Below, piece after piece: positions 1-32,986 of a DNA stretch of 64,000 bases. The notes under the pieces were generated by a model. The model made no database searches. It saw only the letters and a list, made by a program, of their open reading frames with translations, and was not told the DNA's origin. A program made the translations under genes and the position numbers. The stretch is taken from positions 455,608 to 519,607 of the forward strand of contig NZ_JAERVO010000003.1 of the NCBI RefSeq assembly GCF_016798325.1, in the 5' to 3' direction. The DNA comes from Marinobacter mangrovi. Its GTDB lineage: Bacteria; Pseudomonadota; Gammaproteobacteria; Pseudomonadales; Oleiphilaceae. The number at the start of each line of letters is the position of its first letter. Position 1 is the first letter of the stretch.

Positions 1-1409
1 CCTACGCGTTGATGCACGAAGCCAATGCGGCCGACCTGGACAGCCAGCGCAGCGACTACGAACACTACGACTACCCGGGCCGCTTCAAGGGCGATGCCTC
101 CGGCCAGCCCTACACCGAAGCGAGACTGGACAGCCTGCGCAAGGACGCCAGCCTCGGAAGTGGCGAGAGCAACCGCCCGGACTTCAGCGCCGGGGCCAAG
201 GTCACCCTCTCCGGCCACAGCACCGACAGCCTCAACCGGGACTGGCTGATCACCACCGTCAAACACACCGGCAAGCAGCCCCAGGCGCTGGAAGAGGAAG
301 GCGGTTCCGAGCCCACCACCTACAGCAACACCTTCAAGAGTGTGCCGGGGGATACCGCCTGGCGGCCGGAGCCGCCCGCCAGACCGATCATGGACGGCCC
401 GCAGATCGCCATCGTCACCGGACCCCAAGGTGAAGAAATCCACTGCGACGAGCACGGCCGGGTCAAGGTCCGGTTCCCCTGGGACCGTTACAGCCAGAAC
501 GACGAACACAGCAGCGCCTGGCTGCGGGTCAGCCAGGGCTGGGCCGGGGGCAGCTACGGCTTCATGGCGTTACCCCGCATCGGCCACGAGGTCATCGTCT
601 CCTTCCTCGATGGCGATCCGGACCAGCCGATCATCACCGGGCGCACCTACCACGCCACCAACACGCCGCCGTATGCGCTGCCGGAGCACAAGACCCGCAC
701 GACCTTAAAGACCCAGACCCACAAGGGCGAGGGCAGCAACGAACTGCGCTTCGAGGACGAGGCGGACAAGGAACAGATCTACGTCCACGCCCAGAAGGAC
801 CTGGACCTGCTGACCGAGAACGACCGCACCGAGGTGGTCCACAACAACAGCCACCTGACCGTCGACAACGACCGCTACGCCCACATCCAGGCCAACGACC
901 ACAGCACCATCGATGGGGAGAAGCGGGAGAAGGTGTGCCAGGACCACAGCTTCGACGTCACCGGAACGATCCACCTCAAAGCCGGCAGCGCCTGGCTCAG
1001 CGAATCCGGACAGGAACTGCACATCAAGGCGGGCCAGAAAGCCGTCATCGAAGCCGGCGCCGAAATCACCCTCAAAGGCGGCGGCAGCTTCGTCAAGATC
1101 GACCCCAGCGGCGTGGCCCTGAGTGGTCCGGCGATTAACCTCAATGCGGGTGGTTCGGCGGGGAGTGGATCGGGGCAGGGCGTTAAGGTGCCGGACGCGC
1201 CCCAGACCCTGGAAGCGCATAAGGGCGAGAAGGTCGAGCCCGAGGTTCTGGCTGAAGTCGGTCAACGCCCTGTGGCCAAGCCCGTGGTCATACACCGCCT
1301 TAAACAGGCGCGAATTCAACGCTCAGCTTTGGTGGAGCAATGCCAGGAGCAGCCCGATGGTACCTGCCCTCTGAGTGACTGCCCTTGCGGCAAGTCTTCA
1401 GTCGTATAG
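1..1409 (+). CDS. vgrG: T6SS spike protein VgrG, C-terminal portion (5' end lies upstream of window)
   Basis: ORF 9..1409 open to window edge; VgrG C-terminal region with 'GRTYHATNTPPYALP', 'LRFEDEADKEQIYVHAQKDLDL' and later VgrG-like repeats; Gly/Ser-rich tail. Confidence 0.85.
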   Translation, partial: YALMHEANAADLDSQRSDYEHYDYPGRFKGDASGQPYTEARLDSLRKDASLGSGESNRPDFSAGAKVTLSGHSTDSLNRDWLITTVKHTGKQPQALEEEGGSEPTTYSNTFKSVPGDTAWRPEPPARPIMDGPQIAIVTGPQGEEIHCDEHGRVKVRFPWDRYSQNDEHSSAWLRVSQGWAGGSYGFMALPRIGHEVIVSFLDGDPDQPIITGRTYHATNTPPYALPEHKTRTTLKTQTHKGEGSNELRFEDEADKEQIYVHAQKDLDLLTENDRTEVVHNNSHLTVDNDRYAHIQANDHSTIDGEKREKVCQDHSFDVTGTIHLKAGSAWLSESGQELHIKAGQKAVIEAGAEITLKGGGSFVKIDPSGVALSGPAINLNAGGSAGSGSGQGVKVPDAPQTLEAHKGEKVEPEVLAEVGQRPVAKPVVIHRLKQARIQRSALVEQCQEQPDGTCPLSDCPCGKSSVV

Positions 1410-1421
1410 GCGAGGGCGATC

Positions 1422-1985
1422 ATGAAACCAAAGCTGAACAGCAAGACTGTATTCGTCATTATCGAGGGTCATCCGAAGCGGCCTGTTCTGCCAGGACTGT
1501 ATGACCTTGAGCCGCAGCCCCATTGGCAGTACCTGTTTGCGGATACGGAGTGGGCCTCCTACCAATCGGAAAGCCCTTTAGTGATAAAGATCGATGCCGG
1601 CTCACCGTTTTTGCGAAGCGTTATAGATGATATGCAAAGCCCGGAAGGCTGGCGTGGTCTGATCCTGGAGTCGCAGGACGATTTCGATACCGTATTGTCC
1701 TGGGCCCGGCAACGACTGACCGTCGTCTTCGACCCACCTCGAACCGGACTGCTGCGCTACTACGACCCACTGATTTGGCACGCTCTCTGTACAACCGGAG
1801 AAAGGATAGGGGAGACCATCCAGCACGGGCACTACTGGGTGGAAGACGTGGAATCAGGGGCATGGCACTCGTTGGAATATCCGGAGCCGGTAGCCGACCC
1901 TACCAGACCCAGCCTGAGTTCGTCGCAGCTTCAGGCGATTACAGTTCTAGCAAGTCGCCGCAACAACGGCCAGCCTCGCAGTTAA
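1422..1985 (+). CDS. DUF4123-family T6SS effector adaptor/chaperone (Tap/Tec-like)
   Basis: 187 aa directly after vgrG; motifs matching DUF4123 ('SPLVIKI', 'WARQRL', 'LRYYDPLIW'); canonical position between vgrG and cargo effector. Confidence 0.7.
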   Translation: MKPKLNSKTVFVIIEGHPKRPVLPGLYDLEPQPHWQYLFADTEWASYQSESPLVIKIDAGSPFLRSVIDDMQSPEGWRGLILESQDDFDTVLSWARQRLTVVFDPPRTGLLRYYDPLIWHALCTTGERIGETIQHGHYWVEDVESGAWHSLEYPEPVADPTRPSLSSSQLQAITVLASRRNNGQPRS

Positions 1986-1997
1986 AGGAAGACAAGG

Positions 1998-4900
1998 ATG
2001 TCAGAAAACCAAACGAACCAAGCTTCAGCCAGCACTGGCCCAGCCTGTGAAGGCGAGAACCTGATCATTGAAGTCATTGGTAAGAACCATCCTGAGGGTC
2101 AGTCATTTCGTCTTTTCGACACCACGAATATGGTTCAGCAGGAGTGGTTAGAGAATCAGGTCAAAACGGAAGAGTTGGACGACAGTATTCTCCATGTCTG
2201 GCCTATGAAAGGCGAAGATGACAAAAACGTCTGGTTGGAAATGGCCGCGGATGAAGGCGATCCAATCCGGGTACCGTTCCTGAAGGAGGAGGGGGCTGTC
2301 GAACGACAGTCTGAGCGCCAGAAGCATGTCATTCTCCCGGTAGTGCCGGCGACGTTGATCCAGGGGGTAACCCTGAAGGAAAGTAACCCGGCCCATCACG
2401 TCATGCTGCGTGCAGGATTTCTTTACATATTTCATGAAGGAAAGCTCTGGAGAGAAATTGAAGTCCGAATCTCTGAAAAAGGTGTGACGACTTACCACGA
2501 TGTACCGGTATCGCAGTATCGAGCAGAAGGCGGGTTTGAGTATGGTTCCCGGAAAGCGACGGGCACCGGTCTGACTGAGATTTGGTTGCCTGCTCGCATA
2601 AATGGTGCTTGGCTGGATATACAGGTGGCCTACAGTGAGTTTCAACTGCCTTCCGCCCGTTTGAGGTACTTCGAAAAATCGGGCCGAAATCGCGAAGACC
2701 GGTTCAACTTCATTCATCTTGAGCTTGAAAGGCCAGATACCGAGGAAGGTGAAACGCGTCTGTTTGGCACCGGACCTGATCATGCTTTCCTCGCCGAGAA
2801 TCTCAAACCCCAGCGCCCTCGCAAACCGGCAGTAGAGTGGCAATGTGACCGTCCTGGTCGCTACCTGTGTGACGTTAATGGTGAATATCCCAAAGCAAGT
2901 TGGAATGACGCCAAAACGATTCATCAACGGCAAGAGTCCCAAGAGCTCGAGGACGAGATATACGAGGACGAGCGTCCGGAAATGGGCGCTTTATCGCTTT
3001 GCCTTGAAAGAACCTTGGAAGAACTGGAAAGCAGCAACGACAACGCAGAGGAAGCAAGGCAAGAGGATCAGAGCGATAACGCCGGGTCTTCGGAGCCCTC
3101 ACTCTGGGAATCAGGCGGTCAGTGTGTTCCTGACGCTTTGCAGGATGCACGGGATCGAGGCATTGGATGCATCTCGGTAGACGATGGCATTTATCGTCTA
3201 CGCTATCTTACCCAGCGAAAGTTGATAGCTGACTGGTTCAACAGTGCGGCGGTAAGAAGGGCCAAATGTCGGCCCTATTTCGATTCGGCATTTCTTGTCC
3301 ATTCCACCATCGTGCCTTCCGACTTCGATGGTAAGCCAAACCCTCTCCACAAGTTTATTTCAGAGCTATCTTCGACGGGCCGCAATGAAATTGATCGTTC
3401 GGTTGCGAACTCTGAACGGACGATGGCGCAACGGTATTTTGAGCATCTCCAGCGTGACTTACTGGTCGCCGTTAACAATATTGGAATACAAAGCGCGTTG
3501 ACCGATATGTTTACGTGCGATGGTTTCGACTACGCCGGAGCGTTTCAGTTCGTCAGCGGTATCATGAAGGATCTGGTAAAAGACTCTCGCGAAGCCGATG
3601 CACTGAACCTGCACAAAGGCGACACCTCAGAAAACGATGCAAAGCAATGGTTTCGAGGCTTTTGTCGGGGCGAGAACAGTGCTTCGCTCTTTAGCATTCT
3701 TTTCCCCAAGGCAACTCCCGAAACGCTCGAATCCCCTTACGTTGTGCCAGATGAGCCGGAAGAAAACGATGGCAGCGGTCTGTTTCGCGGGACCGAACTG
3801 GCGAAGCTGGAGAATGCGGACTTGCCCAAAGTTGAAGACGTCCAAACATTTCACGGTCTCGAACTCGTTGCGGCCGCACATGAGGGCGTTTTTACGTCGA
3901 TGCTGGCATTTTACGTGCGGGCCGGTAGTGGGATTCTGATGAATATCCACGGCGAGCTTTGGTCAGCCATTCATGACGCTGAGAAAAAGCTGACCGATGA
4001 CCCTGAGTTCAAGAAGAAGCGCCAGGAGTTGGTCGATCTCGACAAGCAGCTGAACGAAGTCAATGACGAGCGAGGGAACCTCAGAAAACAAAGAGCGGCC
4101 GCCCGGAATACCGTCGCAAGAGTGGATGAACTGTATGAAGAGCTTGGCGAAAAAAAAAGGAACTTGCAGCAAGCCAGGCAAGTAAAGGCAAGACAACTGA
4201 ATGAGATCAATAGCAAGGCTGTAACCGCAAAGATGCGTTTGTACGCGGCGTCTCTCCAACAAATTCGAGCTTCACTCCCCAATTTTTGGGGTGAAATGAC
4301 TTTTGAGCGTCTGTCCAAAGCTCTACAAAGTGATTACTACGTGATCGGCTGGCTGGATGATTTGGGCGATGAATCGAACACCAATCAAGGTGTTCGGGTT
4401 TTTGGTGACATCTTTGATGAAAGCACCGAAGAACGAACGTCCGTCGCATCGACAAATAGAAGACGGGCAAACGCCCAAGGCATTGACTCGGAAGCGCCAG
4501 AAGAAGCGCGGCTTCTGGTTTTACCGAAGAGCGCCAAGGCGGCAAAGGCTCTGCTCGAACTCAGCAGCAAGGAAAGTGCGGTCATCGCGGCAGAGAAGCA
4601 AGCAGAGGCGGCCAAGAAGGCTTTCGTTGAAGGGGGGCACGCTGGTACCAACGCTCGGCAGCGTCTTCAAACTGCAACTGAACAACTTGATGAGGCAAAT
4701 AAAAAGTTCAAGGAGCTTACATCACGCATGGGGTCGCTGCGGGAGGATGTAGATGCCCCTCAAAAGGTCATTGCCGAGACGAAGGGTGGGGTGGCATATC
4801 GCTCTTTGAACACGCCTGTTTTACCTGCGTTTGTGATGTTGGTAGAAGTTTATAATTTTTCTGCCAACTATAGCAGTTACGACGCCCTAGAAAGGAAGCG

Positions 4901-6062
4901 AGGCGTAATAAGAGCTTTCGGGGGGCTAGGAAGTGCTGCATACGATTTAACTCTTACCGCAAGTATACTCGCAGAGCGATTTCAGAATGCGATACCCAAA
5001 CAGCTTGGCCGAACGAGTCGATTAGTTACTGCGATGTCTGCGAAGCTGGATAAGGAGGTTAGCGGTCGAATAGGCTTATTACTAGCGAGGTTGGCAGGCG
5101 GACCGGTTGTGATGAGAGCGGCGCTTGGTGCAGCAGGTGCTTTGGCTACCGGTTTTATATTTCTGTCCGACGCCTTCCATGCTTTTGATATGGGGAACAC
5201 AGGGGTTGGCATTGGTTACAGTTTGCTTGCAGCAGGCAGTTTTGCGATGGCCATCAGTAGTGTTGGGGCCACTCTTCTGTTTATCGGCCCCTTAGGGTGG
5301 ATGGCGATCGGCATTGCTCTATCCATTGCTGGAGCACTTGGCGTTTGGTGGTTCAGCGAAGACCCCATAGAGACCTGGATGAGTCAGGGGCCGTTTGGCG
5401 ATTCAACGGAGCTGTCTTTTCTTAAAGACCCTGACGAGTCGTACTACCGGTTGATTAGCCTGTTAATGGGCGTGCGAATCTCTTGGGAGTCCAACCAGAA
5501 ACGAGCCGAGGTGCTTAAGGGCACCATTGAGAGCGAAGGCAAGCTGCTGGAAGCGCAACTTGAAGCCGATTCCTGCCTACGGATTGAGAGTCCCATTCCC
5601 GGTTTGTTCGAGGATTCAGAGAAGAAAAGATTGGATGCTTACTTGCGTCTTGTAGAAAAAGTTGATGCGCACGTTGAATCCAGCCCTTCTGAAAAAACTG
5701 GGAGAGGTCGGTTTGAGTTGCCGCCAGGACAACGCCTTATTGAGGGCGAAGAATTGAAAAAGTACGCCTTGTTCAGGGAGAAGATAGATAACGGATGGTT
5801 GGTTTATTTAAAGACTCCCAAGCCTCATAGAGTTGAAAAGAAAAGCTGGTTCGGAGGCACGCGAACAAACTTGTATACCTATGCGTGGAGCGTAAGGGCT
5901 CAGATTCATGTTCAGGACGATGGGCGTGATGTGGTGTTCCCGGCACCGCCACCGGACGATCCGTTGACATATGATAAGGCTGATCCGGAGCATACAACGC
6001 CAGATTTTTCAGAAACAGATAAAGACTTTTGGTTCGATGAACAGGTTAATCAAGATGGATGA
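1998..6062 (+). CDS. Large T6SS cargo effector (1354 aa), VasX-like: MIX-like motif, central coiled coil, C-terminal glycine-zipper transmembrane cluster, conserved about 70-aa tail
   Basis: Follows vgrG + DUF4123; 'LRAGFLYIF' fits the hRxGhhYhh MIX core (nt 2406-2432); Lys/Glu/Gln-rich coiled coil about 3960-4750; hydrophobic Gly/Ala-rich helices about 5064-5355; last 70 aa recur as remnants at 17569-17797 and 43334-43540. Confidence 0.6.
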   Translation: MSENQTNQASASTGPACEGENLIIEVIGKNHPEGQSFRLFDTTNMVQQEWLENQVKTEELDDSILHVWPMKGEDDKNVWLEMAADEGDPIRVPFLKEEGAVERQSERQKHVILPVVPATLIQGVTLKESNPAHHVMLRAGFLYIFHEGKLWREIEVRISEKGVTTYHDVPVSQYRAEGGFEYGSRKATGTGLTEIWLPARINGAWLDIQVAYSEFQLPSARLRYFEKSGRNREDRFNFIHLELERPDTEEGETRLFGTGPDHAFLAENLKPQRPRKPAVEWQCDRPGRYLCDVNGEYPKASWNDAKTIHQRQESQELEDEIYEDERPEMGALSLCLERTLEELESSNDNAEEARQEDQSDNAGSSEPSLWESGGQCVPDALQDARDRGIGCISVDDGIYRLRYLTQRKLIADWFNSAAVRRAKCRPYFDSAFLVHSTIVPSDFDGKPNPLHKFISELSSTGRNEIDRSVANSERTMAQRYFEHLQRDLLVAVNNIGIQSALTDMFTCDGFDYAGAFQFVSGIMKDLVKDSREADALNLHKGDTSENDAKQWFRGFCRGENSASLFSILFPKATPETLESPYVVPDEPEENDGSGLFRGTELAKLENADLPKVEDVQTFHGLELVAAAHEGVFTSMLAFYVRAGSGILMNIHGELWSAIHDAEKKLTDDPEFKKKRQELVDLDKQLNEVNDERGNLRKQRAAARNTVARVDELYEELGEKKRNLQQARQVKARQLNEINSKAVTAKMRLYAASLQQIRASLPNFWGEMTFERLSKALQSDYYVIGWLDDLGDESNTNQGVRVFGDIFDESTEERTSVASTNRRRANAQGIDSEAPEEARLLVLPKSAKAAKALLELSSKESAVIAAEKQAEAAKKAFVEGGHAGTNARQRLQTATEQLDEANKKFKELTSRMGSLREDVDAPQKVIAETKGGVAYRSLNTPVLPAFVMLVEVYNFSANYSSYDALERKRGVIRAFGGLGSAAYDLTLTASILAERFQNAIPKQLGRTSRLVTAMSAKLDKEVSGRIGLLLARLAGGPVVMRAALGAAGALATGFIFLSDAFHAFDMGNTGVGIGYSLLAAGSFAMAISSVGATLLFIGPLGWMAIGIALSIAGALGVWWFSEDPIETWMSQGPFGDSTELSFLKDPDESYYRLISLLMGVRISWESNQKRAEVLKGTIESEGKLLEAQLEADSCLRIESPIPGLFEDSEKKRLDAYLRLVEKVDAHVESSPSEKTGRGRFELPPGQRLIEGEELKKYALFREKIDNGWLVYLKTPKPHRVEKKSWFGGTRTNLYTYAWSVRAQIHVQDDGRDVVFPAPPPDDPLTYDKADPEHTTPDFSETDKDFWFDEQVNQDG

Positions 6063-7110
6063 TGCGCCGGCAATGACAGGTGGGGATGGTCTTTATTATG
6101 GGAATGCAGCCTACCATCCGGAAAAGCTACCAAAGCAGCGACCGCAACTCTTGGATCCCAATCAGTCGGCTTTAAAGCGCATGGCGTCAGCCCGGTTGCC
6201 GTGGGGACATGCCGACAACGTCGTCCCTGACCGAGTCTTCTCAGTCGCTACCCCAAAGGCTCTGCGTGAAATTGAGCGACATGGCAGTCTGTTGGACAAT
6301 ATTGATGATCAAGGGGAAATGGATCATGAGTGCTTTCGCTTTGCGCCGTTAGCGAAAAGGGTTCAGATACTGGATTTGATGGAGGGTCTATCTAAGCTTG
6401 CTGTTAAAATTTTGGTTCCACTTACGATCGTTACGTTGCTATTAGCTTGGTCTGCAACTTCGAACGATGCTTACTGGCAAGATATCATCAATCACTGGTT
6501 TTTTTTCGCGTGTCTGCTTGGGATTCCTGGAGGAATCTGGTTGGTATCGGACTTGCTGATCAAGTACTGTCTCGGCTGGATTCTGAAATCCGGAAAAGGC
6601 CCGATATGGGAGTTCAATCGACGCACGGGCATGGTAACCGTCTGGAAATATCCATTTAAAATCCCGTTTATTCCTCGCGGCAAACCAGAGACCAAGCAGT
6701 TCCCGTTTATAGAGTTCGATGCCTGGGTCAGTGCCCGAGCCGACCGCTACGGCGCTTTGAATCGACTGCGGCTCTTTCATCGGTATAGCCCATGCGAGGT
6801 CGACATCGGAGCGGCTACCGGCGATCACAGCATGCCAGAGTCCTGTTATGCGATGTGGGATTTTATCCAGAACTATATGGACGTCACTCGGCCACTGCCC
6901 GATATCCCCGTGTTGGAACCCCATCGCCACAAGGACCCGGTGACTGTCGAATACGACCGTCGAACCAATCGCCCTGAACGTTATTGGCGTGATATGGACG
7001 ATGAGACATTCAAGGCGTGCGAAAACGAAATGAGCCTCAATGTGCGAATGATGAGCATGCAGAGCCGGGACAATATCATGGCCGGAAAGGTGGTTTACAC
7101 GAGCAGTTAG
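6037..7110 (+). CDS. Cognate immunity protein candidate (family A1), two TM helices + conserved C-terminal domain; start overlaps effector 3' end
   Basis: ATG 6037 inside the last codons of the effector (stop 6060-6062). N-terminal 'AAYHPEKLP' motif, two TM helices, then 'FIEFDAWVS' and 'YAMWDFIQNYMDVTRPLPDIPVLEPHRHKDPVT' shared by 7 paralogs in the window. The track start 5971 is an upstream extension. Confidence 0.55.
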   Translation: MNRLIKMDDAPAMTGGDGLYYGNAAYHPEKLPKQRPQLLDPNQSALKRMASARLPWGHADNVVPDRVFSVATPKALREIERHGSLLDNIDDQGEMDHECFRFAPLAKRVQILDLMEGLSKLAVKILVPLTIVTLLLAWSATSNDAYWQDIINHWFFFACLLGIPGGIWLVSDLLIKYCLGWILKSGKGPIWEFNRRTGMVTVWKYPFKIPFIPRGKPETKQFPFIEFDAWVSARADRYGALNRLRLFHRYSPCEVDIGAATGDHSMPESCYAMWDFIQNYMDVTRPLPDIPVLEPHRHKDPVTVEYDRRTNRPERYWRDMDDETFKACENEMSLNVRMMSMQSRDNIMAGKVVYTSS

Positions 7111-7424: not shown

Positions 7425-7475
7425 CCGTTACACGGTTAATCGTTGAGTGGTTTCCCAGGGAAGGGAAACTGAAAT

Positions 7476-7511
7476 GCAAGCAAACCCTTAATTCACCACA
7501 AGGACCGTGAA
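7476..7511 (+). repeat. Conserved leader 'gcaagcaaacccttaattcaccacaaggaccgtgaaatgcc' preceding ligase gene (copy 1 of 4)
   Basis: Same about 36-40 nt ending at the ligase ATG, also at 10679-10704, 17038-17072 and 44640-44675. Confidence 0.8.
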
Positions 7512-9588: not shown

Positions 9589-10608
9589 TTGACTGATCCT
9601 GAGAAGAGTGAACATAGCGGGGCTTCATACTCGGAAACGGCCTATCGCTCCGATGCCTTGCCGCGCCAGGCCCCGCTGAGTGATCCGGGTGGTTTTGCTC
9701 GCACCCTGGAAGGGCTGAATTTTGTCGAGCGGCTGCCTACTGGCAGTTACGCTGGTTTAGACGGGGACGTTAGCCCAGACGTTGTGAAGCATTTTCAGGA
9801 TCGGGCACAAGGTGAAATGAACTTGGCTGGCCCTCCCTGGGATCATAAAGGGAAGCCGGCCAATCTCATTAAGACGCGCTGGGAAATTATACTAATGTTT
9901 GCCGGTACTCTTGGAGATAGGTTCGTTTTCGGTTTTTTTTCGTTCGCTTGTTTAGGCAGTTTTCTTATAGGCATATGCGTTGCTGATTTTTTTATTACAT
10001 TGAAACTTATTTCAATATTGTTTTTTGGTTTGGTAATTCTTCATATTACTTTTCGTTATCCCTTCATGTGGCTCTTGGAGCGCTATCCAGAGATCATGGT
10101 TCGCGATCTCGGTTGCGGTTTTTTCCGTACGACGGGAAAAATCAAATTCCGCACCTACTGGGGTAAGGAAACCTTCGAGGCCCCCTTCATCGAGTTCGAT
10201 CCTTATATCGCCTATCACGTCCAACCGAATGGCCCGGTGAGCTATAAGCTGGTTCTTCGACACCGTTATCGGGGGCGTCAGACGGAGGTGGCTACCGTTC
10301 CGCAGGGACGAAAGACCGAGCTCTATGCCGTCTGGGACCAGTTGCAGCGCTACATGGACGTGAGCCAGCCCCTGCCGGATATCCCGGCCCTGGAAGCCTA
10401 CCGGTCCCTCGACCCCACAACCGCGGCCTATGATGCCGCCGGTAAGCGGGGTCGACCTGCGGATTATTGGGTCACACTGGACCTGGACTGGTGGAAACGG
10501 GAAGGGTATCCCGAGCACATGACAAAGATCGCTGAATTCCCGTGGGACAGTCTCGAAGACAAGATGGAACAGAGTGTGCCAAACCTGCGCGAAGCGGCCA
10601 TGGTTTAA
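9589..10608 (+). CDS. Immunity-family paralog A3 (divergent member; TTG start likely)
   Basis: 'YSETAYRSDALP' N-motif, TM segment, 'FIEFDPYIAYH', 'YAVWDQLQRYMDVSQPLPDIPALEAYRSLDPTT'; preceded by the about 170-nt junction also found at 42170-42340. Confidence 0.5.
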   Translation: MTDPEKSEHSGASYSETAYRSDALPRQAPLSDPGGFARTLEGLNFVERLPTGSYAGLDGDVSPDVVKHFQDRAQGEMNLAGPPWDHKGKPANLIKTRWEIILMFAGTLGDRFVFGFFSFACLGSFLIGICVADFFITLKLISILFFGLVILHITFRYPFMWLLERYPEIMVRDLGCGFFRTTGKIKFRTYWGKETFEAPFIEFDPYIAYHVQPNGPVSYKLVLRHRYRGRQTEVATVPQGRKTELYAVWDQLQRYMDVSQPLPDIPALEAYRSLDPTTAAYDAAGKRGRPADYWVTLDLDWWKREGYPEHMTKIAEFPWDSLEDKMEQSVPNLREAAMV

Positions 10609-10678
10609 ACACTGACATCACCGCAAATAGCGTTACTCAATGACGTCCCATGGACGGGACGCTAAGTCGCAAGCAAAC

Positions 10679-10704
10679 CCTTAATTCACCACAAGGACCG
10701 TGAA
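10679..10704 (+). repeat. Ligase leader repeat (copy 2)
   Basis: 'gcaagcaaacccttaattcaccacaaggaccgtgaaatgcc' core. Confidence 0.75.
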
Positions 10705-10953
10705 ATGCCAACCCCGCTGTACCAGCGCTGGCTGCCAATTCTGTTTGGCCTCGCCCTGCTGTTCCCCGCGTCTGAACTCCACGCCGAAAAAACGCAACTC
10801 ACCCTGGCCCAGGTCTACGAAAAGGGCGATGCCCTCAAAGGCTACTGGGTTAGCGAAAAGCTGGACGGTGTGCGGGCCTATTGGGACGGCGAACACCTGA
10901 TTTCCCGCCAGGGCCATGCGTTTCATCCGCCGACCTGGTTTACCCGGGATTTT
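10705..10953 (+). pseudogene. LigE-like ligase copy 2, truncated after codon 83 by the IS21-family remnant
   Basis: Identical N-terminus through 'PPTWFTRDF'; nucleotide identity to copy 1 ends at 10953, where the track ORF (to 11067) runs on into unrelated IS-derived sequence. Confidence 0.7.
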
Positions 10954-11067
10954 GGCGGTGTTCCGGCCAGCGTCCTGGTCGATAACCAGAATGCCGCGGT
11001 GGTTCGACACGACCGGGATGGCAAGATCGTCTTCAACGCCGGCTTCCTGGAACTGGCCAACCATTAA

Positions 11068-11604
11068 GGCTTCGCCGCCCGGGCCTGCCGGCCCAGGACC
11101 AAGGGCAAGACCGAGCGCATGGTGAGCTACGTGAAGCACCACTTCTTCCAGCGCTATCGCAGCTTCGACAGCTACGCGCACCTGAACCAGTTACTGGAAC
11201 AGTGGTTGAGCAGCTATGCCCGTCAGCGGAGATTACGCCAGTTCCAGCAATCTGCGGCTCAGCGCTTCGAGGAAGAGCTCCACCAACTCAGCCCTCGTCC
11301 GGCAACGGACGTCGATACCCGCTATTACGACATCCGCCATGTGGGCTGGGATGCCTACATCGATGTGCGGGGCAAACGTTACAGCGTACCGGCCGAGTGT
11401 TGTGGTCAACGGGTCAACATCCTCATGAGCCTGGACGGTGAACTCACCGTCTACGACCTCCGGGGCCAGGAAGTCGCCCGTCACCGGATGACCGATCGCA
11501 GGCAAGGCTGGCAAACCGTCGCTGAACACCACGAGCCGCTGTGGCAAGAGGTGATGCCCGTGCAGCGCCGAAGCCTGGCGGTGTATGAGGAGGTGCTGCA
11601 ATGA
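11068..11604 (+). pseudogene. istA: IS21 transposase IstA, C-terminal fragment only
   Basis: In-frame region begins right after a stop at 11065-11067 with 'ASPPGPAGPGPRTKGKTERMVSY'; catalytic N-terminal region missing. Confidence 0.65.
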
Positions 11605-12402
11605 ACCTGGACCAACTCCTAGGCCGGCTCAAAATGGACCATCCGCAAGCCTCCCTGGATACCCTGTGCGAACACGCCAGCAAGAAGGACCTGAACTACC
11701 GGGAGTTCCTGGAACAGGCCCTGGCCCAGGAATGGGGTGGCCGCCACCAGAAAGGCCTGGACACGCGCCTCAAGCAGGCCCGGCTGCCCTGGATCAAAAC
11801 CCTGGAGCAGTTTGACTTCAGCTTCCAGCCGAGCATTGACCGCAAGCTGGTGCGGGAACTCTCCGGCCTGGGGTTCGTGGAGCGCAACGAGAGTGTGATC
11901 CTGCTGGGGCCACCGGGTGTGGGCAAAACCCACCTGGCCGTCGCCCTAGGCGTAAAGGCTGCTGAAGCGGGCCATCGCGTCCTGTTCATGACCCTGGATC
12001 GCCTGGTGAGCACACTGGTCAAAGCCCGGCAGGAAAACCGGCTGGACCGACAGCTTCAACAACTGATCTACCCAAAGGTGCTGGTGCTTGACGAGATCGG
12101 TTACCTGCCCATGACCCGGGAGGAGGTCAGCCTGTTCTTCCGTCTGATCAACCGGCGCTATGAGCGAGCCAGCACCATCCTGACCTCGAACAAGAGCTTT
12201 ATGGACTGGGGTGAGGTGTTGGGACCAGGTCATTGCCACCGCCATTCTGGATCGGCTGTTGCACCACTCAACGACTCTGAACATCAAGGGCGAGAGCTAC
12301 CGGCTAAAGGACAAACGGAAGGCCGGCCTTGTTCCCGGTACGAGCCAACAACAGGAGGTCTCTGACGACGCTGAGCCTCAAAAACCGGACACTGAAAACT
12401 GA
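11601..12402 (+). pseudogene. istB: IS21 helper ATPase IstB with a frameshift near codon 205
   Basis: ATG overlaps the istA stop (ATGA). The conserved C-terminus 'VIATAILDRLLHHSTTLNIKGESYRLK' continues in a different frame (ORF 12211..12402) after about nt 12215-12235. Confidence 0.65.
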
Positions 12403-12456
12403 TGAAAACCGGACAATCTAGACTGATAAAAAGCGGTCAAACTTCGCTGTTGTTGA

Positions 12457-13011
12457 CACTACTGGGATGAACAGTCCAGGCCATCGAACACGGAGCTGCT
12501 GGAGGACAGCAGAACCATCGCATCCCCGGACGATGGCGGGAAAGTTCGTAAATATTTTGAAGCGGAGCTGGATGCATTCTATTACATGCTGTTTTCGCCC
12601 ATAGTGCGAATAACCGAACACATGCCCAGGTATTGGGATACGACCCGGCAGGGGGAGCTTAAGGTCCTGTCGGAGTTCACGAGCTTTGCAGTGTACTTTC
12701 CGGGATACAGTGAAGGGACATGTGTCGTTTCTATAAAACTGTTCGAGGCGAATACCCACTGGTTCTCAGATGACGATTCAAATGAAATTAGCCACTTGTT
12801 CGATGACCGAAAGAGACAAGAGTCCGCTTCCCATGGTCTGCTTTACCGGTTTACTCACTACAATCACAACAAGTGGGAACAACTGGAAATGCTGATTGAA
12901 TACGAGAAGGATGGCCGGAAGGTTACCGGTGAAAACGGGCTCAGAATTATTCTGGACGGTAACGACGTGGAGGAACTGGGTGTCGATGAAAGACTCGCCT
13001 TTGAGGTGTGA
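12457..13011 (+). pseudogene. 3' fragment of a second (family-B-associated) effector-like gene, 5' part removed by the IS21 remnant
   Basis: Frame open without a start from 12457 (just after the IS end); first ATG 12586; its last about 35 codons ('...IEYEKDGRKVTGENGLRIILDGNDVEELGVDERLAFEV') recur upstream of each downstream tandem paralog. Confidence 0.4.
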
Positions 13012-13861
13012 TTTTCCGGAAACGGACCTGGAGCAACAGCTGGAAAAGAAGCGGTACCGTACTCATGGTGCACGGCTCGCCAGCCCCCCAGCCAGAAAGG
13101 TGGCGGGAGTGTCCGATTCTTCGGAAGATATGGACCAAGGCGTTGCTTTCATTAGTGAAGGGTTCATGGACATTAGGACTGCCTTCTTGTCTCTTCGAAG
13201 GGCCATACCAGCCATCATAAATCTGTTCATGATCATTGTCCTGCTGTTGGGCTGGGTCGTTAGCTTGTTCTTTTCAAAGGCTTTACTCGGAGTATTGATT
13301 GCTTTTGGTCCTGTCTGGGTGGCCGTCTACCTGTTCGAGATCTTCTTTCCGTACACGCTGCCGGTCCGGATCGACCTTAAGGAGGGGGTCGTCTACATAG
13401 GGCACCGCGGCACCTTCTACAGGATTCCCTGGGACGAGCTGGAAGTGACCTTTTCCTACAACTGGCAGTATCTGGGCTCTGGCGTAGTGTGGGAGCGGCA
13501 GTACTACGCCCACATATTCATGCGGGAAAAGCATTACTTTTGTGGGAAGCGCCCTAAGATGCCTCTGCAGCGCAAGAAGGTTTTTTCCGGGTTTAAGGAG
13601 GAGGATATGTATCGGAAATGGAACTTTATTGTCAGGTATTACAACGACGGGGTTGTTGAAAAAGACATCGATCATCTCGCCGGGATGAATTTTGACTCGC
13701 TTCGTAAGGATCTAGCTTCCAGTTCAATAGGAAAACGCATAGTCGAGTATTCTCTTCTCATTCTGCTTATTCCGACCATAATATGGTCGAAGTATACACC
13801 CTTAAAATACAAGTGGCCGAAAGAGATTGAAGAGATTTTTGGGAAGATTAACTATTACTGA
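12986..13861 (+). CDS. Family-B candidate immunity membrane protein (tandem copy 1 of 4)
   Basis: ATG 12986 overlaps the 3' end of 12457..13011; 'MKDSPLRCDFPETDLEQQLEKK', two TM helices, 'GHRGTFYRIPWDELEVTFSYNWQYLGSGVVWERQYY'. Confidence 0.5.
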   Translation: MKDSPLRCDFPETDLEQQLEKKRYRTHGARLASPPARKVAGVSDSSEDMDQGVAFISEGFMDIRTAFLSLRRAIPAIINLFMIIVLLLGWVVSLFFSKALLGVLIAFGPVWVAVYLFEIFFPYTLPVRIDLKEGVVYIGHRGTFYRIPWDELEVTFSYNWQYLGSGVVWERQYYAHIFMREKHYFCGKRPKMPLQRKKVFSGFKEEDMYRKWNFIVRYYNDGVVEKDIDHLAGMNFDSLRKDLASSSIGKRIVEYSLLILLIPTIIWSKYTPLKYKWPKEIEEIFGKINYY

Positions 13862-14001
13862 TCCAGTAATCGAGGTTTTCCTGACACTGCGTTCTGCCCT
13901 ATTGAACTGACGACTGAGTTAGAAGGATGGCCGGAAAGTCACGGGTGAAGACGGGCTCCGTATCATCCTGGTCGGTAACGATGTGGAGGAACTGGGTGTC
14001 G

Positions 14002-14877
14002 ATGAAAGACTCGCCTTTGAAGTGTGATTTTCCGGAAACAGATCTGGAACAACAGTTGGAAAAGAAGCTGTACCGCACTCATGATGCGCGACTCGCCAGC
14101 CCGCCAGCCAGGAAAGTGGCAGGGGTGTCGGCTTCCTCGGAAGGAATGGAGTATGGTGTCGCCTACATCAACCAACGGTTCATGGACATCCGCACGGCTT
14201 TCTTGATCTTTAGGCGATTCCAATTGGCTATTGTAAATCTGTTCATGATGATTGTCTTGACATTGGGCGGGGGGCTTAGCCTGTTTTTTTCAAAGGCACC
14301 GTTGGCAGTCTTGGTTACTTTTGGGCCTGTCTGGGCGGCCATCTACCTGTTCGAAATTTTCTTCCCGCTCACGCTGCCCGTGCGGATCGACCGCCAGGAA
14401 GGGGTTGTGTACGTAGGGCACCGGGGGACTTTTTACCGGATTCCCTGGGACGAACTGGAAGTGACCTTTTCCTACAACTGGCAGTATCTCGGCTCCGGGG
14501 TTGTATGGGAGCGGCAGTACTATGCCCATCTGTTTATGCGGGAGAAGCATTACTTTTGCGGGAAGTCCCCCAAGATGCCCTTGCAGCGTAAAAAAATCTC
14601 TTCCGGGTTTAAGGAAAAGGATATGTATCGGAAATGGAATTTTATTGTCAGGTATTATAACGAAGGAATGGTTGAGGAGGACGCTGACAATCTTGTTATG
14701 GCTAATTACGATACATACCGTAAATACATAACCCAAAAATCATTGGGGAGGCGTATTTTTAGTTACTTGTTGTTTCTTGTATTTATGCCAACCATGATTT
14801 GGTGGAAATTTACCCCTTTCAAGTACAAGTGGCCGAAAGAGGTTGAGGAGGTTTTTGGGAAGGCTAACAATTACTGA
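14002..14877 (+). CDS. Family-B candidate immunity membrane protein (tandem copy 2)
   Basis: Paralog of copy 1; preceded by the remnant 'KDGRKVTGEDGLRIILVGNDVEELGVDERLAFEV*' (13925-14029). Confidence 0.5.
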   Translation: MKDSPLKCDFPETDLEQQLEKKLYRTHDARLASPPARKVAGVSASSEGMEYGVAYINQRFMDIRTAFLIFRRFQLAIVNLFMMIVLTLGGGLSLFFSKAPLAVLVTFGPVWAAIYLFEIFFPLTLPVRIDRQEGVVYVGHRGTFYRIPWDELEVTFSYNWQYLGSGVVWERQYYAHLFMREKHYFCGKSPKMPLQRKKISSGFKEKDMYRKWNFIVRYYNEGMVEEDADNLVMANYDTYRKYITQKSLGRRIFSYLLFLVFMPTMIWWKFTPFKYKWPKEVEEVFGKANNY

Positions 14878-15018
14878 TTCCGGGTTGAAAATTTCCTGTC
14901 ACCGCGCTCTACCCCATTGGACTGCGGATCGAGTATGAGAAGCATGGCCGGAAAGTCACGGGTGAAGACAGGCTCCGAATTATTCTGGACGGCAACGATG
15001 TGGAGGAACTGGGTGTCG

Positions 15019-15891
15019 ATGAAAGACTCGCCTTTGAGGTGTGATTTTCCGGAAACGGACCTGGAGCAACAGCTGGTAAAGAAGCGGTACCTCACCCATG
15101 GTGCGCGGCTTGCCAGTCCGCCGGCTCGGAAAGTGGCGGGGGTGTCCGATTCCTCGAAAGAGATGGACTATGGAGTCGCCTGCATCAGCGAGAGGTTTAT
15201 GGATATCCGTACCACCTTCTTGTCTTTTAGAAGATCCATTCCAGTGATTGTGAGTATGTTCATGATTATTGCCTTGGCGGTAGGCTGGGTTGTTAGTCTG
15301 CTCTATTCAAAGGCACTGCTTGGGGTGCTGCTCGCCTTCAGCCCAGTCTGGGTAGCCGCCTATCTGTTTGAGTTTCTGTTTCCGTACACTCTGCCGGTCC
15401 GGATCGACCGGCAGGAGGGATTTGTTTACGTGGGGCACCGGGGTACCTTCTACCGGATTCCTTGGGACGAGCTGGAAGTGACTTTTTCTTATAATTGGCA
15501 GTATCTGGGCTCAGGTGTTGTGTGGGAGCGGCAATATTACTCCCACCTATTCATGCGGGAAAAGCATTACTTCTGCGGGAAGCCTCCCAAGATGCCCTTG
15601 CAACGCAAGAAAATTTCTTCCGGGTTTAAGGAAGGAGATATGTATCGAAAATGGAATTTTATTGTCAGATATTACAACGAAGGAGTTGTTGAAGAGGATG
15701 AAGAGAATCTCTATGGAGCAAATTTCGACTCTTACAATCAGCATGTGAAGGGCCAAACGGGACGACGTGTTTTCGGTAATGTACTCTTCTTATTATTTAT
15801 GCCGAGTATCGTATGGTCTAAATATAGTCCGTTTAAATATAGATGGCCGAAGGAAATTGAAAATATATTTGGAGAGTTTGATTATTACTGA
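15019..15891 (+). CDS. Family-B candidate immunity membrane protein (tandem copy 3)
   Basis: Paralog; preceded by the remnant 'IEYEKHGRKVTGEDRLRIILDGNDVEELGVDERLAFEV*'. Confidence 0.5.
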   Translation: MKDSPLRCDFPETDLEQQLVKKRYLTHGARLASPPARKVAGVSDSSKEMDYGVACISERFMDIRTTFLSFRRSIPVIVSMFMIIALAVGWVVSLLYSKALLGVLLAFSPVWVAAYLFEFLFPYTLPVRIDRQEGFVYVGHRGTFYRIPWDELEVTFSYNWQYLGSGVVWERQYYSHLFMREKHYFCGKPPKMPLQRKKISSGFKEGDMYRKWNFIVRYYNEGVVEEDEENLYGANFDSYNQHVKGQTGRRVFGNVLFLLFMPSIVWSKYSPFKYRWPKEIENIFGEFDYY

Positions 15892-16031
15892 TTTAGTAAT
15901 CGAAGTTTTCTTAACATTGCGCTCTGCCCTAGTGAACTGACGGCCGAGTGAGAAGGATAACCGGAAAGTCACGTTTGAAAACGGGCTCCGAATTATTCTG
16001 GATTGAAACGATGTAGAGGAACCGAGTGTCG

Positions 16032-16907
16032 ATGAGCGATTTACCTTTGAGTTGTGATTTTCCAAAAACTGAATTGGAACAGCAACTCGATATCCGTCGG
16101 TTTCGCACTTTCGGTGCCAGGCTTGCGAGTCCGCCAGCTCGAAAAGTGGATGGCATATCTGATTCCTCGGAAGATATGGACCATGCTGTTGCCTATGCGG
16201 ATGAACGATTCATGGATGTCCGGCCCGCTTTCTTAACTCTGAGGAGGGGGCTGCTCCCACTGATTAACTTATTCATGATTTTTGTTCTTTTTGTGATGTG
16301 GATGGTCGGTCAATTTTATTACGGAGTCTTCATGGCCACTGTAGCTTTGGTGGTGCCTCTATGGGTTGCGTTTTTTGTATACGAGATTTTTTTTCCACTG
16401 ACATTACCCATCCGTATTGATCGAAAAGAGGCGTTCGTATACGTAGGATATCGGGGAACTTTTTATCGTATTCCGTGGGAAAAGTTAGAGGTTACTTTTT
16501 CATATAGTCTTCAGTACTTTGGTTCTTGTGTTATGTGGGATCGGCAATATTATTCTCATTTGTATCTAAGAAGTGATTTTTATTTTTGCGGTAAGAAACC
16601 AAAGAGAAAACTGCAAAGATTGAGGTTTTCTTCATACTTTAAAGAAGACCATCTATATAGAAAGTGGAATTTTATAGTCAGATATTTTGATGAAGGTTTG
16701 GTGAGAGAGGACCGAGAAAATCTGGTTGCTGCCAACTACGATTCTTATGTTAAAAGTATGCGCAATAAATCATTGTTTATGTTTGTTGTTGATTATGTGA
16801 GTGTGCTTTTCTTGGTCCCCACTATTATTTGGGGTAAATTTTCACCGTTTAAATTTAAATGGCCCGAAAAAATTGAAGCCGTATTTGGGAAAAATAATTA
16901 TTACTAA
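16032..16907 (+). CDS. Family-B candidate immunity membrane protein (tandem copy 4, most divergent, lower GC)
   Basis: 'MSDLPLSCDFPKTELEQQLD', same architecture; preceded by a degenerate remnant with in-frame stops. Confidence 0.45.
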   Translation: MSDLPLSCDFPKTELEQQLDIRRFRTFGARLASPPARKVDGISDSSEDMDHAVAYADERFMDVRPAFLTLRRGLLPLINLFMIFVLFVMWMVGQFYYGVFMATVALVVPLWVAFFVYEIFFPLTLPIRIDRKEAFVYVGYRGTFYRIPWEKLEVTFSYSLQYFGSCVMWDRQYYSHLYLRSDFYFCGKKPKRKLQRLRFSSYFKEDHLYRKWNFIVRYFDEGLVREDRENLVAANYDSYVKSMRNKSLFMFVVDYVSVLFLVPTIIWGKFSPFKFKWPEKIEAVFGKNNYY

Positions 16908-17037
16908 GTTTGTTAGCAACAGAATGAGAAATATTTTGCGCGATAGACCGGCTATCTGCTCCTGATTTCGGTGCTTGAGTATCTAACCGTTGTAATCAAA
17001 TCTTCCGACATCCTCCCAAGGACGGGAATCCGACACA

Positions 17038-17072
17038 CAAGCAAACCCTTAATTCACCACAAGGACCGTGAA
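17038..17072 (+). repeat. Ligase leader repeat (copy 3)
   Basis: Same core sequence ending at ATG 17073. Confidence 0.75.
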
Positions 17073-17511
17073 ATGCCCACCCCGCTGTACCAGCGCTGGC
17101 TGCCAATTCTGTTTGGCCTTGCCCTGCTGTTCCCCGCGTCTGAACTCCACGCCGAAAAACCACAACTTACCCTGGCCCAGGTCTACGAAAAGGGCGATGC
17201 CCTCAAAGGCTACTGGGTCAGCAAAAAGCTCGACGGTGTGCGGGCCTACTGGGACGGTGAGCACCTGATTTCGCGTCAGGGCCATGCGTTTCATCCGCCG
17301 ACCTGGTTTACCCGGGATTTTCCGGAGGTACCTCTGGATGGCGAGCCGTGGATGGGACGCGGGACCTTTTCCGAGCTGTCTGGCGTAGTGCGCAAGCTGG
17401 ACCCGGTGGACAGCGCCGAGCACATGACAAAGATCGCTGAATTCCCGTGGGACAGTCTCGAAGACAAGATGGAGCAGAGTGTGCCAAACCTGCGCGAAGC
17501 GGCCATGGTTC
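17073..17511 (+). pseudogene. Mosaic fragment: LigE-like ligase codons 1-114 fused in frame to the last 32 codons of an A3-type immunity gene
   Basis: Ligase identity through 'VVRKLDPVDS', then 'AEHMTKIAEFPWDSLEDKMEQSVPNLREAAMV' (the C-terminus of 9589..10608). The track ORF 16971..17630 overextends on both sides. Confidence 0.6.
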
Positions 17512-17568
17512 AAACACTGACATCACCGCAGAAAGGTAGACCCCTTAGGTCTCAGGCAGACCCAGAGC

Positions 17569-17797
17569 TGAAAAGAAAAGCCGGTTCGGAGGCACGCGAA
17601 CAAACTTGTATACCTATGCGTGGAGCGTAAGGGCTCAGATTCATGTTCAGGACGAGGGGCGTGATGTGGTGTTCCCGGCACCGCCACCAGACGATCCGTT
17701 GACATATGATAAGGCGGATCCAGAGCATACAACGCCGGATTTTTCGGAAACGGGTAAAGATTTCTGGTTCGATGAAAAGGTGGTTCAACGTGGGTAG
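17569..17797 (+). pseudogene. Remnant of the last about 75 codons of an effector gene homologous to 1998..6062
   Basis: 'EKKSRFGGTRTNLYTYAWSVRAQIHVQDEGRDVVFPAPPPDDPLTYDKADPEHTTPDFSETGKDFWFDEKVVQRG*' against the effector C-terminus; no upstream effector body. Confidence 0.7.
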
Positions 17798-18848
17798 TGT
17801 TTTCGAGAAGCAGAACCAAGCCGCTGTTCATTACGCGGAAACAGCATACCGGCCAGAGTGCATACCAGAGCAACCTTCACAGCGGGAGGATTATAACCAA
17901 TCAGCTTTGGGGCGCGTCGGCACTGCACGTTTGCCATGGGGATACACCGAAACAGTTATCCCTTTGACCATTTTTTCTCAAGCTTCACCGGGTTTACTTC
18001 GTCGACATGAAAAACATGGAGATCCGTTAGAAGGGACTGGTTACCAGGGAAAAATGGATCATGAATGCTTTCGATATGCGCCTTTGGCCAAGCGATTTCA
18101 GATATTAAATTTAACTGAAATCATTTCCAGATTTATTATTATTATTTTTGGTCCTCTAATGATTTTGGGTTTTATTATAGGATCATTTCTTACATCCAAA
18201 AGTGATTACTGGCATAGTCTAATATACGATGACTGGCGCTCAAATGCTTTAATGTTTGGAGTTCCAATTGGAGTTTGGGTTAGTTCTTGGGTTTTAGGTA
18301 AGCTGTGTTTAGGCTGGTTTTTGAAGGCAGGAAAAGGCCCTCTATGGGAGCTGAAACGCCGCACCGGCATGGTCACCGTGTGGTCCTACCCTCCAAAATT
18401 TCCATTTATTCCCCGTGGCAAGCCTGAGGTTTTTAAAGCCCCCTTTGTGGAATTTGACGCCTGGGTCAGTACCCGTGGTGACCGGGCCGGGATTCTGAAC
18501 CGTCTCCATTTGTTCCATCGTTACAGCAAGTGTGAAGCAGGTGTGGGGGCTGTCGGTGGAGCGACCAGTATGCCTGAGCCCTGCTACGCCCTTTGGGACT
18601 TCGTCCAGAACTACATGGACGTGACCCAGCCCTTGCCCGATATCCCGATCTGGGAAGCCTGCCGCCACCTGGACCCGGTCACGGCCGAGCACGACCGGCA
18701 AACCAACCGCCCGGAACGCTATTGGCGCGATATGGACGACGACACGTTCAAGGCCTGCGAGCGCGAGATGCACTATCGAGTCCACGCACTGCGCACCCTG
18801 AGCCGGCCGAACATCATGGCTGAGAAGACGGTTTACGCGAGCTACTAG
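17772..18848 (+). CDS. A1-type candidate immunity protein (orphan copy), start overlapping the effector-tail remnant
   Basis: Same overlap geometry as 6037..7110; 'YAETAYRPECIP', two TM helices, 'FVEFDAWVSTRGDRAGILNRLHLFHRYS', 'YALWDFVQNYMDVTQPLPDIPIWEACRHLDPVTAEHDRQTNRPERYWRDMDDDTFKACE'. Confidence 0.55.
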   Translation: MKRWFNVGSVFEKQNQAAVHYAETAYRPECIPEQPSQREDYNQSALGRVGTARLPWGYTETVIPLTIFSQASPGLLRRHEKHGDPLEGTGYQGKMDHECFRYAPLAKRFQILNLTEIISRFIIIIFGPLMILGFIIGSFLTSKSDYWHSLIYDDWRSNALMFGVPIGVWVSSWVLGKLCLGWFLKAGKGPLWELKRRTGMVTVWSYPPKFPFIPRGKPEVFKAPFVEFDAWVSTRGDRAGILNRLHLFHRYSKCEAGVGAVGGATSMPEPCYALWDFVQNYMDVTQPLPDIPIWEACRHLDPVTAEHDRQTNRPERYWRDMDDDTFKACEREMHYRVHALRTLSRPNIMAEKTVYASY

Positions 18849-24438: not shown

Positions 24439-24572
24439 GCTGATCTGTGGGCGCCGGTTGTTGGGAGGGCACACGGACCGGCGACGGGTGTTCAATGGAA
24501 CAGGAAAGGCCGGTCGCCGTGGGCCAGTCTCTCCCGAGCTAGATGCTCAGCGATTCTGCGCGCTTCTCGCTT

Positions 24573-28954: not shown

Positions 28955-29017
28955 CTTGACTCCGAAGGGAAAGCACCGGCTGCAGAGGCAGCCGGATAGA
29001 AGTAGAGCGATAACAGG

Positions 29018-29707: not shown

Positions 29708-29722
29708 GTCATCGTCCCCTGA

Positions 29723-32968: not shown

Positions 32969-32986
32969 TCCACGCCTCGGACCCGT

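Follow-up and report, generated by a model that had tools for sequence, protein, structure and literature searches.

The 64,000-nucleotide (nt) stretch of Marinobacter mangrovi DNA analysed here (contig NZ_JAERVO010000003.1, positions 455,608 to 519,607; called the window below and numbered from its first letter) carries a truncated toxin gene followed by four related membrane-protein genes, B1 to B4, which form a candidate array of orphan immunity genes. A repeat search of the window found four tandem head-to-tail units of about 1016 bp each at 12890-16908, with unit starts 1016, 1017 and 1013 nt apart, and a MAFFT alignment of the four units gave a mean column identity of 80%. The repeat is far beyond chance, and the four units of about 1 kb described in the original prediction, which had been made from the DNA letters alone, are confirmed. 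Each unit contains one intact open reading frame (ORF) of 290-291 amino acids (aa) whose product is identical to an NCBI M. mangrovi protein, all four being encoded on one contig. The array consists of the following features:

12457..13011, + strand: C-terminal 184 codons of a VasX_N/BTH_I2691-type toxin of a type VI secretion system (T6SS), here called toxin B; truncated pseudogene, recognised by homology to 955-aa toxins
12986..13861, + strand: B1, 291 aa, DUF6708-like membrane protein, putative immunity allele 1; identical to P0013
13920..14027, + strand: decayed toxin tail 2, its toxin frame broken by a 2-nt deletion and a TAG; bears the GGAGGA ribosome-binding site of B2
14002..14877, + strand: B2, 291 aa, putative immunity allele 2; identical to P0017
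14925..15044, + strand: toxin tail 3, open for about 38 codons, with amino-acid changes and without a toxin body upstream
15019..15891, + strand: B3, 290 aa, putative immunity allele 3; identical to P0020
15950..16057, + strand: decayed toxin tail 4, with an in-frame TGA
16032..16907, + strand: B4, 291 aa, divergent AT-rich putative immunity allele 4; identical to P0038

In front of B2, B3 and B4, after a spacer of about 45 nt, comes a homologue of the final 35 codons of the frame 12457-13011, about 105 nt long, and in each unit the stop of the toxin frame falls 26 nt inside the B ORF. It had been proposed that every unit begins with a decayed copy of the 3' end of this frame; this is true of units 2-4, whereas unit 1 is preceded by the fragment itself. 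The description of copies 1-3 as highly similar does not hold, since they share only 73-76% protein and 76-84% DNA identity. Copy 4 is indeed divergent and AT-richer, with 56-58% protein identity to B1-B3, a GC content of 0.39 compared to 0.48 in copies 1-3 (window, 0.57), and a GC content at third codon positions (GC3) of 0.38 compared to 0.55-0.62. Terminator-like hairpins at 12996 and 15029 were discarded, as they have 5-bp stems within the B start and are at chance level.

The frame 12457-13011 is what remains of a much longer gene. In a first protein search the 184-aa fragment retrieved only 11 hits, all of them short; the word index limited sensitivity, and no full-length toxin was among them. 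Longer metagenomic homologues of the stump run N-terminally into glycine-rich hydrophobic or transmembrane helices, and one match lies on a 55-kb metagenomic contig together with vgrG, a DUF4123 gene, a VasX_N protein (with assembly frameshifts) and a B homologue. A genome scan of one genome per species found 26 loci, nearly all in Marinobacter (L numbers below). In about 20 Marinobacter loci the genes run vgrG, DUF4123 adaptor (288 aa), 955-aa toxin and one 291-aa B gene, and in these the B start overlaps the toxin stop identically, by 26 nt. Throughout L001-L027 vgrG and the DUF4123 adaptor precede the toxin, which is the order expected for VasX_N/BTH_I2691 effectors. The stump is 55-79% identical to the last 184 residues of the 955-aa toxins in L002-L027, proteins that NCBI names "toxin VasX". 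It was therefore correctly identified as the C-terminal fragment of an effector, its full-length homologues being 955-aa VasX_N toxins and not small standalone proteins. Nor is B a housekeeping family, as a B homologue always follows the toxin in those loci and the family links to DUF6708.

The full-length homologue at L012:7111-10020 scores 68.9 bits with Pfam VasX_N (threshold 27), and the N terminus of toxin B matches the Ptx2 toxin in the PDB with an E value of 6.6e-6. Glycine-rich membrane helices are found at L012 residues 685-750, a predicted membrane region that lies upstream of the part preserved in M. mangrovi. Because the stump starts just past the membrane region, at ...RYWDEQ, it would be non-toxic.

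Immediately before the stump lies a remnant of an insertion sequence (IS):

10956..12458, + strand: IS21-family remnant comprising the 3' part of istA, istB and the right terminus; from Pfam, nucleotide identity and the terminus
11119-11604, + strand: istA 3' part, ORF; Pfam Mu-transpos_C_2, E 2.6e-13
11601-12365, + strand: istB, with a frameshift near 12210, the frame continuing to 12402; IstB_IS21, 220.9 bits

The right terminus, ...TTGTTGACA, ends at 12458, the first codon of toxin homology. Two AAAACCGGACA repeats are readable near this end, and the terminal 24-mer occurs once in the window. The remnant has the istA and istB genes and the terminal repeats ending in CA that characterise the IS21 family, but it is incomplete, with its left part gone and istB frameshifted. 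Its nucleotide identity to annotated IS21 istA/istB on plasmids is 72%, and no near-identical IS copies were found in plasmids. On the left the element is broken and joins a copied ligase 5' end at about 10955, and on the right it directly adjoins the toxin stump at about toxin residue 772, which leaves the stump without either the loading domain at the N terminus or the membrane region rich in glycine. We infer that an IS21-family element inserted into toxin B near codon 772, and that a subsequent deletion took the left half of the IS and everything upstream. The position of the right terminus thus supports the earlier suggestion that the effector body was removed by way of the IS21 remnant.

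With Pfam DUF6708 (PF20455, gathering threshold 27 bits) B2 scores 25.4, B3 22.9 and B4 16.1 bits and B1 gives no match, so that none of the four reaches the threshold; a match at E<=1e-3 is obtained for 18 of 37 B-family members, the best at 3.3e-8. A B-family profile run against 1.8 billion representative proteins found only 33 proteins. Among its hits, P0176, P0180, P0181, P0186, P0188 and P0196 (E values from 7e-26 to 1e-5) score 31-38 bits on DUF6708. Since these distant full-length matches exceed the DUF6708 threshold, B would be a small, divergent and mostly Marinobacter-restricted branch of DUF6708. The AlphaFold2 model of B1 (predicted local distance difference test score 82.8, predicted template modelling score 0.81) has a transmembrane hairpin formed by residues 68-93 and 99-120, a beta domain at 127-202 and C-terminal helices. 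The 290-aa protein with two transmembrane segments foreseen from the sequence is therefore borne out in its hairpin and its length (290-291 aa), and the model adds a further hydrophobic helix near the C terminus. No solved structural relative of the model was found. We regard as spurious and driven by composition the match of 25 stretches of P0179, a repetitive arginine- and proline-rich protein of 4625 aa, to B profile positions 22-58 (B profile ...RLASPPARKVAGVS... against P0179 repeat ...ERLASCPAEKAPGVS...).

The four copies are not recent duplicates of each other. In a neighbour-joining tree of 121 B sequences they fall into four different clades. Elsewhere, the nearest relatives of B1 share 84-89% identity with it, among them the gene next to the intact L002 toxin; M. 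algicola DG893 has a toxin-adjacent gene in the B1 cluster. For B2 the figure is 82-86%, with toxin-adjacent genes of L010 and L006 among the relatives, and B3 is 84-85% identical to toxin-adjacent genes in L003, L005, L007 and L008. The best outside relatives of B4 reach 66-69%, and the toxin-adjacent L019 gene clusters with it. Many close relatives of B1-B4 lie directly downstream of an intact toxin (L002, L003, L005-L008, L010, L019). Synonymous divergence (dS) between the window copies is 1.1-1.6, and saturated for B4. The array is, on these comparisons, a collection of old and distinct alleles rather than the product of recent amplification in place. As to B4, its low GC3 and the modest identity of its closest relatives suggest a lower-GC donor or a long separate history.

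These alleles have been kept intact. The ratio of nonsynonymous to synonymous divergence (dN/dS) is 0.08-0.13 (B1 compared with L002, 0.12; B2, 0.10; B3, 0.08). No disabling lesion is present in the B ORFs (4 x 873 nt, about 3.5 kb), compared to at least three in 315 nt of orphan tails, which speaks for selection still acting on the B genes but not on the tails. All four B genes are in this respect under purifying selection while the tails decay. Across genomes, the identity of orphan tails to the intact-toxin consensus remains at 0.86-0.94 only over the 45 nt leading up to the B start, GGAGGA motif included, and drops to 0.6-0.7 further upstream.

Toxin and immunity candidates also diverge together. 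Distances between toxins and between their adjacent B proteins are correlated (r 0.88, Mantel p 5e-4), and the correlation peaks (r 0.89) at alignment columns 641-720, where the toxin is most variable. These columns, which are not mapped to residues, lie in about the same part of the toxin as the glycine-rich helices at L012 685-750, and the pattern fits recognition inside the membrane. In B, the variable segments are residues 41-120 and 221-260. The stump is closest to the L012 toxin (79%), whose neighbouring B protein is only 76% identical to B1, and a pairing of stump with B1 was not adopted, the stump having lost the part of the toxin that varies most, around the membrane segment.

The junctions between units bear on how the array was built. 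The window junction (B 3' end, spacer of about 45 nt, tail) aligns end to end with those of L003, L004, L007, L009, L011, L002 and L006, and its occurrence in at least seven other genomes indicates a breakpoint that is old, was created once and then propagated. Other breakpoints have left tails of about 20, 62, 74 and 107 codons in L018/L021, L011, L025 and L004. In total, at least five toxin truncation points occur in the genus (about 20, 35, 62, 74, 107 and 184 codons), and this variety of tail lengths indicates that truncation of the toxin with retention of the immunity gene occurred repeatedly. Modules of type B and of the type A described below alternate at the same vgrG locus across species (L021, L025, L026). 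Conservation of the toxin tail and the first 25 B codons generally exceeds that of the gene core by about 10 points, with synonymous differences halved. When junction blocks of neighbouring copies are set against between-genome pairs with equal core divergence, the difference is within about one standard deviation; as the blocks are only marginally more alike, we reject gene conversion within the array as a strong effect. Many single-copy loci also have a decayed toxin tail, about 60-130 nt after the single B gene in L002, L005, L006, L009 and L022 (compare P0011), sometimes followed by the first codons of another B or fused to the ORF of a DUF4124 protein. From such leftovers in single-copy loci, arrays appear to shrink as well as grow.

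The array (12986-16907) lies downstream of a vgrG/adaptor/toxin cluster on the same + strand, and fragments of a ligase gene flank it on both sides:

9..7110, + strand: resident T6SS auxiliary cluster, from Pfam and NCBIfam matches
9-1409, + strand: vgrG, partial
1422-1985, + strand: DUF4123 adaptor
1998-6062, + strand: toxin A, 1354 aa, with weak VasX_N and BTH_I2691 matches
5971-7110, + strand: A1, putative immunity gene overlapping the end of toxin A
10646..10955, + strand: ligase 5' copy, left flank of the B sub-array, fused to IS21; 93% to 7453-7752, its frame leaving the ligase after ...PPTWFTRDF
17014..17415, + strand: second extra ligase 5' copy, flanking the B sub-array on the right and joined at 17416 to a 3' fragment of family A; 95% to 7453-7752

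The B genes are therefore best described as a sub-array nested in the immunity island of resident toxin A. The original prediction spoke of a second toxin family; what stands is that toxin B represents a second subfamily of the VasX_N/BTH_I2691 superfamily to which toxin A also belongs, no similarity between the two toxins being found by BLASTP. Likewise, no reliable homology between immunity families A and B was found with hhalign (12.5% probability, E 0.0023, although the alignment was topologically sensible) or with reciprocal hmmsearch, which gave nothing significant. As called, A1 overlaps toxin A by 92 nt (5971-6062) compared to 26 nt in the B family, and translation of A1 may in fact begin at an internal ATG. 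Family A shows the arrangement seen in B: the final 230 nt of toxin A recur at 17564-17793 (92% to 5829-6058), where they precede and overlap an orphan family-A gene at 17706-18848, and further full or truncated A copies are found downstream of toxin A and A1, at 7152-7425, 8889-9485 and 9589-10608.

A LigE-like ATP-dependent DNA ligase with a signal peptide is present in full once, at 7512-8435, and is the conserved right flank of the Marinobacter loci. Its upstream and 5' region exists in three copies that are 93-95% identical (7453-7752, 10646-10945 and 17014-17313), of which only the first continues into the full gene; next to the last one, 17416-17535 is 97% identical to 10511-10630. As the ligase is the conserved right flank and its 5' fragments bracket the B sub-array, serial integration anchored in the ligase gene is suggested. 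A chimeric 219-aa ORF at 16971-17630, which joins the ligase N terminus to the last family-A codons and runs toward the toxin-A tail, is probably a recombination scar and not a gene.

Other neighbours of the island are two membrane-protein ORFs on the - strand directly after it, at 18941-19747 (268 aa) and 19891-20382 (163 aa), neither with a Pfam or NCBIfam match. Further along, 31028-38292 (+ strand) holds a 646-aa ORF without Pfam match followed by a single 1745-aa protein with DUF3686 ("ATPase involved in DNA repair"), DUF7902 and AAA domains, which could be a defence- or repair-type module. A protein of 1280 aa encoded at 24573-28415 (- strand), consisting mostly of ankyrin repeats and of unusual size for a bacterium, adjoins a group of PspA, DUF2170 and glutathionylspermidine-synthase genes (22461-30286).

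Taken together, the region is very probably an orphan immunity-gene array of a T6SS auxiliary cluster in which toxin B has been destroyed and four immunity alleles retained. An array of this kind had been proposed from the outset, and the gene order at the other loci and the link to DUF6708 support it, the immunity function itself being inferred from them. Toxin B would have been an effector of the VasX_N/BTH_I2691 class, loaded through VgrG and the DUF4123 adaptor and existing in many variants across Marinobacter. Characterised members of the class enter the inner membrane from the periplasm and dissipate the membrane potential. Family B, with its transmembrane hairpin and its position directly downstream, would be the immunity protein of toxin B, most likely neutralising it by binding the toxin membrane region inside the inner membrane, by analogy with Tke5/Tki5. 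The four different alleles, selected to stay intact, presumably shield the cell from toxin-B variants of neighbouring Marinobacter. The tails before copies 2-4 would be the decaying leftovers of earlier toxin genes, conserved in their last 45 nt or so, where the ribosome-binding site lies.

Several points weigh against this reading. Protection of a cell from a toxin is putative for DUF6708 and B proteins alike, and even in Stenotrophomonas rhizophila the assignment is positional. B1 has no DUF6708 match, and B2 (25.4 bits) remains under the threshold of 27. The L012 toxin reaches 113.3 bits (E 1.3e-32) with NCBIfam BTH_I2691_fam, mostly over its N-terminal third and short of the curated cutoff of 150, so that toxin B is, to judge from these scores, a relative of BTH_I2691_fam outside the curated subfamily. 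Expression of the array is putative: a scan of the tails, the IS end and the ligase fragment for promoter consensus found none, and total counts hardly differed from those expected after shuffling. That the M. mangrovi genome has no intact toxin B at another place is only weakly indicated, by the lack of a full-length M. mangrovi protein among the 56 homologues listed by a word-indexed protein search. Much of the low dN/dS may be older than the loss of the toxin, and physical linkage and a common phylogeny confound the correlation between toxin and immunity distances.

How the alleles came together admits more than one answer. They might have arisen by duplication within the Marinobacter lineage, through unequal crossing-over of tail/B repeats and vertical birth-and-death rather than serial capture of foreign modules. 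We regard this as possible without favouring it. Junctions 1-2, 2-3 and 3-4 have the same breakpoint, also present in seven other genomes, and some second-position orphans are sisters across genomes (L003_6167, L011_11034). However, each window copy is closer to genes of other genomes, many of them toxin-adjacent, than to its neighbours, the base composition of B4 differs from that of B1-B3 (GC3 0.38 compared to 0.55-0.62), the genus has its five or more truncation points, and modules of types A and B alternate at the same vgrG locus in different species. Duplication and capture are compatible, as an old repeat scaffold could have been reloaded by homologous recombination, and we conclude that such a scaffold and recombination or horizontal exchange both contributed, in shares that cannot be apportioned. 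A more speculative version, which we consider rather doubtful, takes the conserved junction (some 35 terminal toxin codons, about 25 initial codons of B, the conserved 3' end of B and the spacer) as a portable cassette boundary, at which homologous recombination would allow an integron-like capture and swap of alleles without an integrase, with the ligase fragments marking serial integrations anchored in the right flank. Recent tandem amplification of one immunity gene in place, for instance to raise its dosage, is scarcely credible: it would account for the regular spacing of about 1016 bp and the common unit boundaries, but not for copies that are 56-76% identical with dS above 1 or saturated, nor for much closer relatives of each copy in other species, and neighbouring junction blocks are no more alike than core divergence predicts.

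Two further explanations concern what the B genes do. That B is a membrane accessory factor for export or insertion, or an unrelated hitch-hiking membrane protein, seems to us highly improbable, even if the protective role of DUF6708 proteins is so far putative. The loading role is already filled by the upstream DUF4123 adaptor, and where the toxin is cut short or missing (here, L004, L021, L025) B persists intact under purifying selection, which fits protection and not a helper of the adjacent toxin; its position, start/stop overlap, membrane topology and multi-allele arrays moreover match the validated TsiV2 and Tki5. We give even less credence to the array being a non-functional relic of the IS21-mediated decay of an old toxin locus. 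A destroyed toxin, a frameshifted istB, a surrounding mosaic of fragments and the lack of a detected promoter would all suit a relic, but four lesion-free full-length ORFs next to 105-nt tails with stops and an indel, a dN/dS of 0.08-0.13 and a conserved ribosome-binding region would not.

Read as retained immunity genes, the array is an ordinary, if well-resolved, case of a phenomenon already known and not a new kind of system. It provides a clean natural example of antidotes kept after loss of the toxin and extends the phenomenon to marine Marinobacter and to the pairing of DUF6708 with VasX_N/BTH_I2691. Its value lies in the allelic series: this one strain has four diverged alleles, relatives supply about 20 matched toxin-immunity pairs, and immunity divergence is tracked most closely by the toxin segment that varies most, around the membrane region. 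This is material for the question of how membrane immunity proteins recognise pore-forming T6SS toxins, which the Tke5/Tki5 paper calls unresolved (PMC13133200).

The locus resembles several known systems, each in part. In Rhs and contact-dependent inhibition (CDI) systems, the retained fragment is a whole toxic tip that can be re-activated by recombination. The M. mangrovi array is similar to their orphan toxin-tip modules in that each immunity gene follows a toxin 3' fragment, downstream of a full-length toxin (compare the discussion in PMC5361080), but it keeps only 20-45 non-toxic terminal codons, which are decaying. Orphan immunity arrays of Vibrio cholerae have been explained as the outcome of effector genes being displaced one after another (Kirchberger et al. 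2017, PMC5361080). As in those arrays, the M. mangrovi genes lie 3' of vgrG, adaptor and effector, the orphans are nearest to toxin-adjacent genes of other strains, module types alternate, and the proposed benefit is protection against neighbours that keep the old effector (PMC5361080). Different from V. cholerae, the M. mangrovi orphans are alleles of one immunity family, their junction is common across species and the last toxin loss was IS-mediated.

With VasX/TsiV2 and Tke5/Tki5 the locus shares the VasX_N/MIX N terminus, the DUF4123 adaptor, the C-terminal membrane region and a downstream inner-membrane immunity protein. VasX dissipates the membrane potential from the periplasmic side and TsiV2 protects against it (PMC3857813), and in Pseudomonas putida the membrane protein Tki5 co-purifies with Tke5 from the membrane, binds the toxin membrane region and blocks depolarisation (PMC13133200). 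The likeness of B to TsiV2 and Tki5 is one of position and topology, not of compared sequence, and toxin B and its solved relative Ptx2 have only the N-terminal domain detectably in common. The last 253 bp of vasX contain the tsiV2 promoter (PMC3857813), whereas our scan found no promoter-like consensus in the M. mangrovi tails.

The closest parallel is the vgrG3 cluster of S. rhizophila CFBP13503, which comprises vgrG3, tap3 (DUF4123), tse3 (a MIX-III and BTH_I2691 pore-forming effector) and tsi3a (DUF6708), with tsi3a followed by 12 homologous immunity genes (PMC13340143); an earlier preprint counted 8 (bioRxiv 10.1101/2023.07.21.549874). In that cluster, DUF6708 is assigned as immunity to the BTH_I2691 effector by genomic position and not by assay (PMC13340143). 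The S. rhizophila effector is intact, whereas that of M. mangrovi was cut by IS21, leaving four copies without an intact toxin alongside. Compared to tsi3a, family B is only borderline on the Pfam model and forms a divergent branch mostly restricted to Marinobacter. Toxin-tail remnants before the copies are a feature of M. mangrovi that goes unmentioned for S. rhizophila in the available portion of the article (PMC13340143). In both, the same toxin class and adaptor family are accompanied by a DUF6708-type membrane protein directly downstream and by a multi-copy immunity array.

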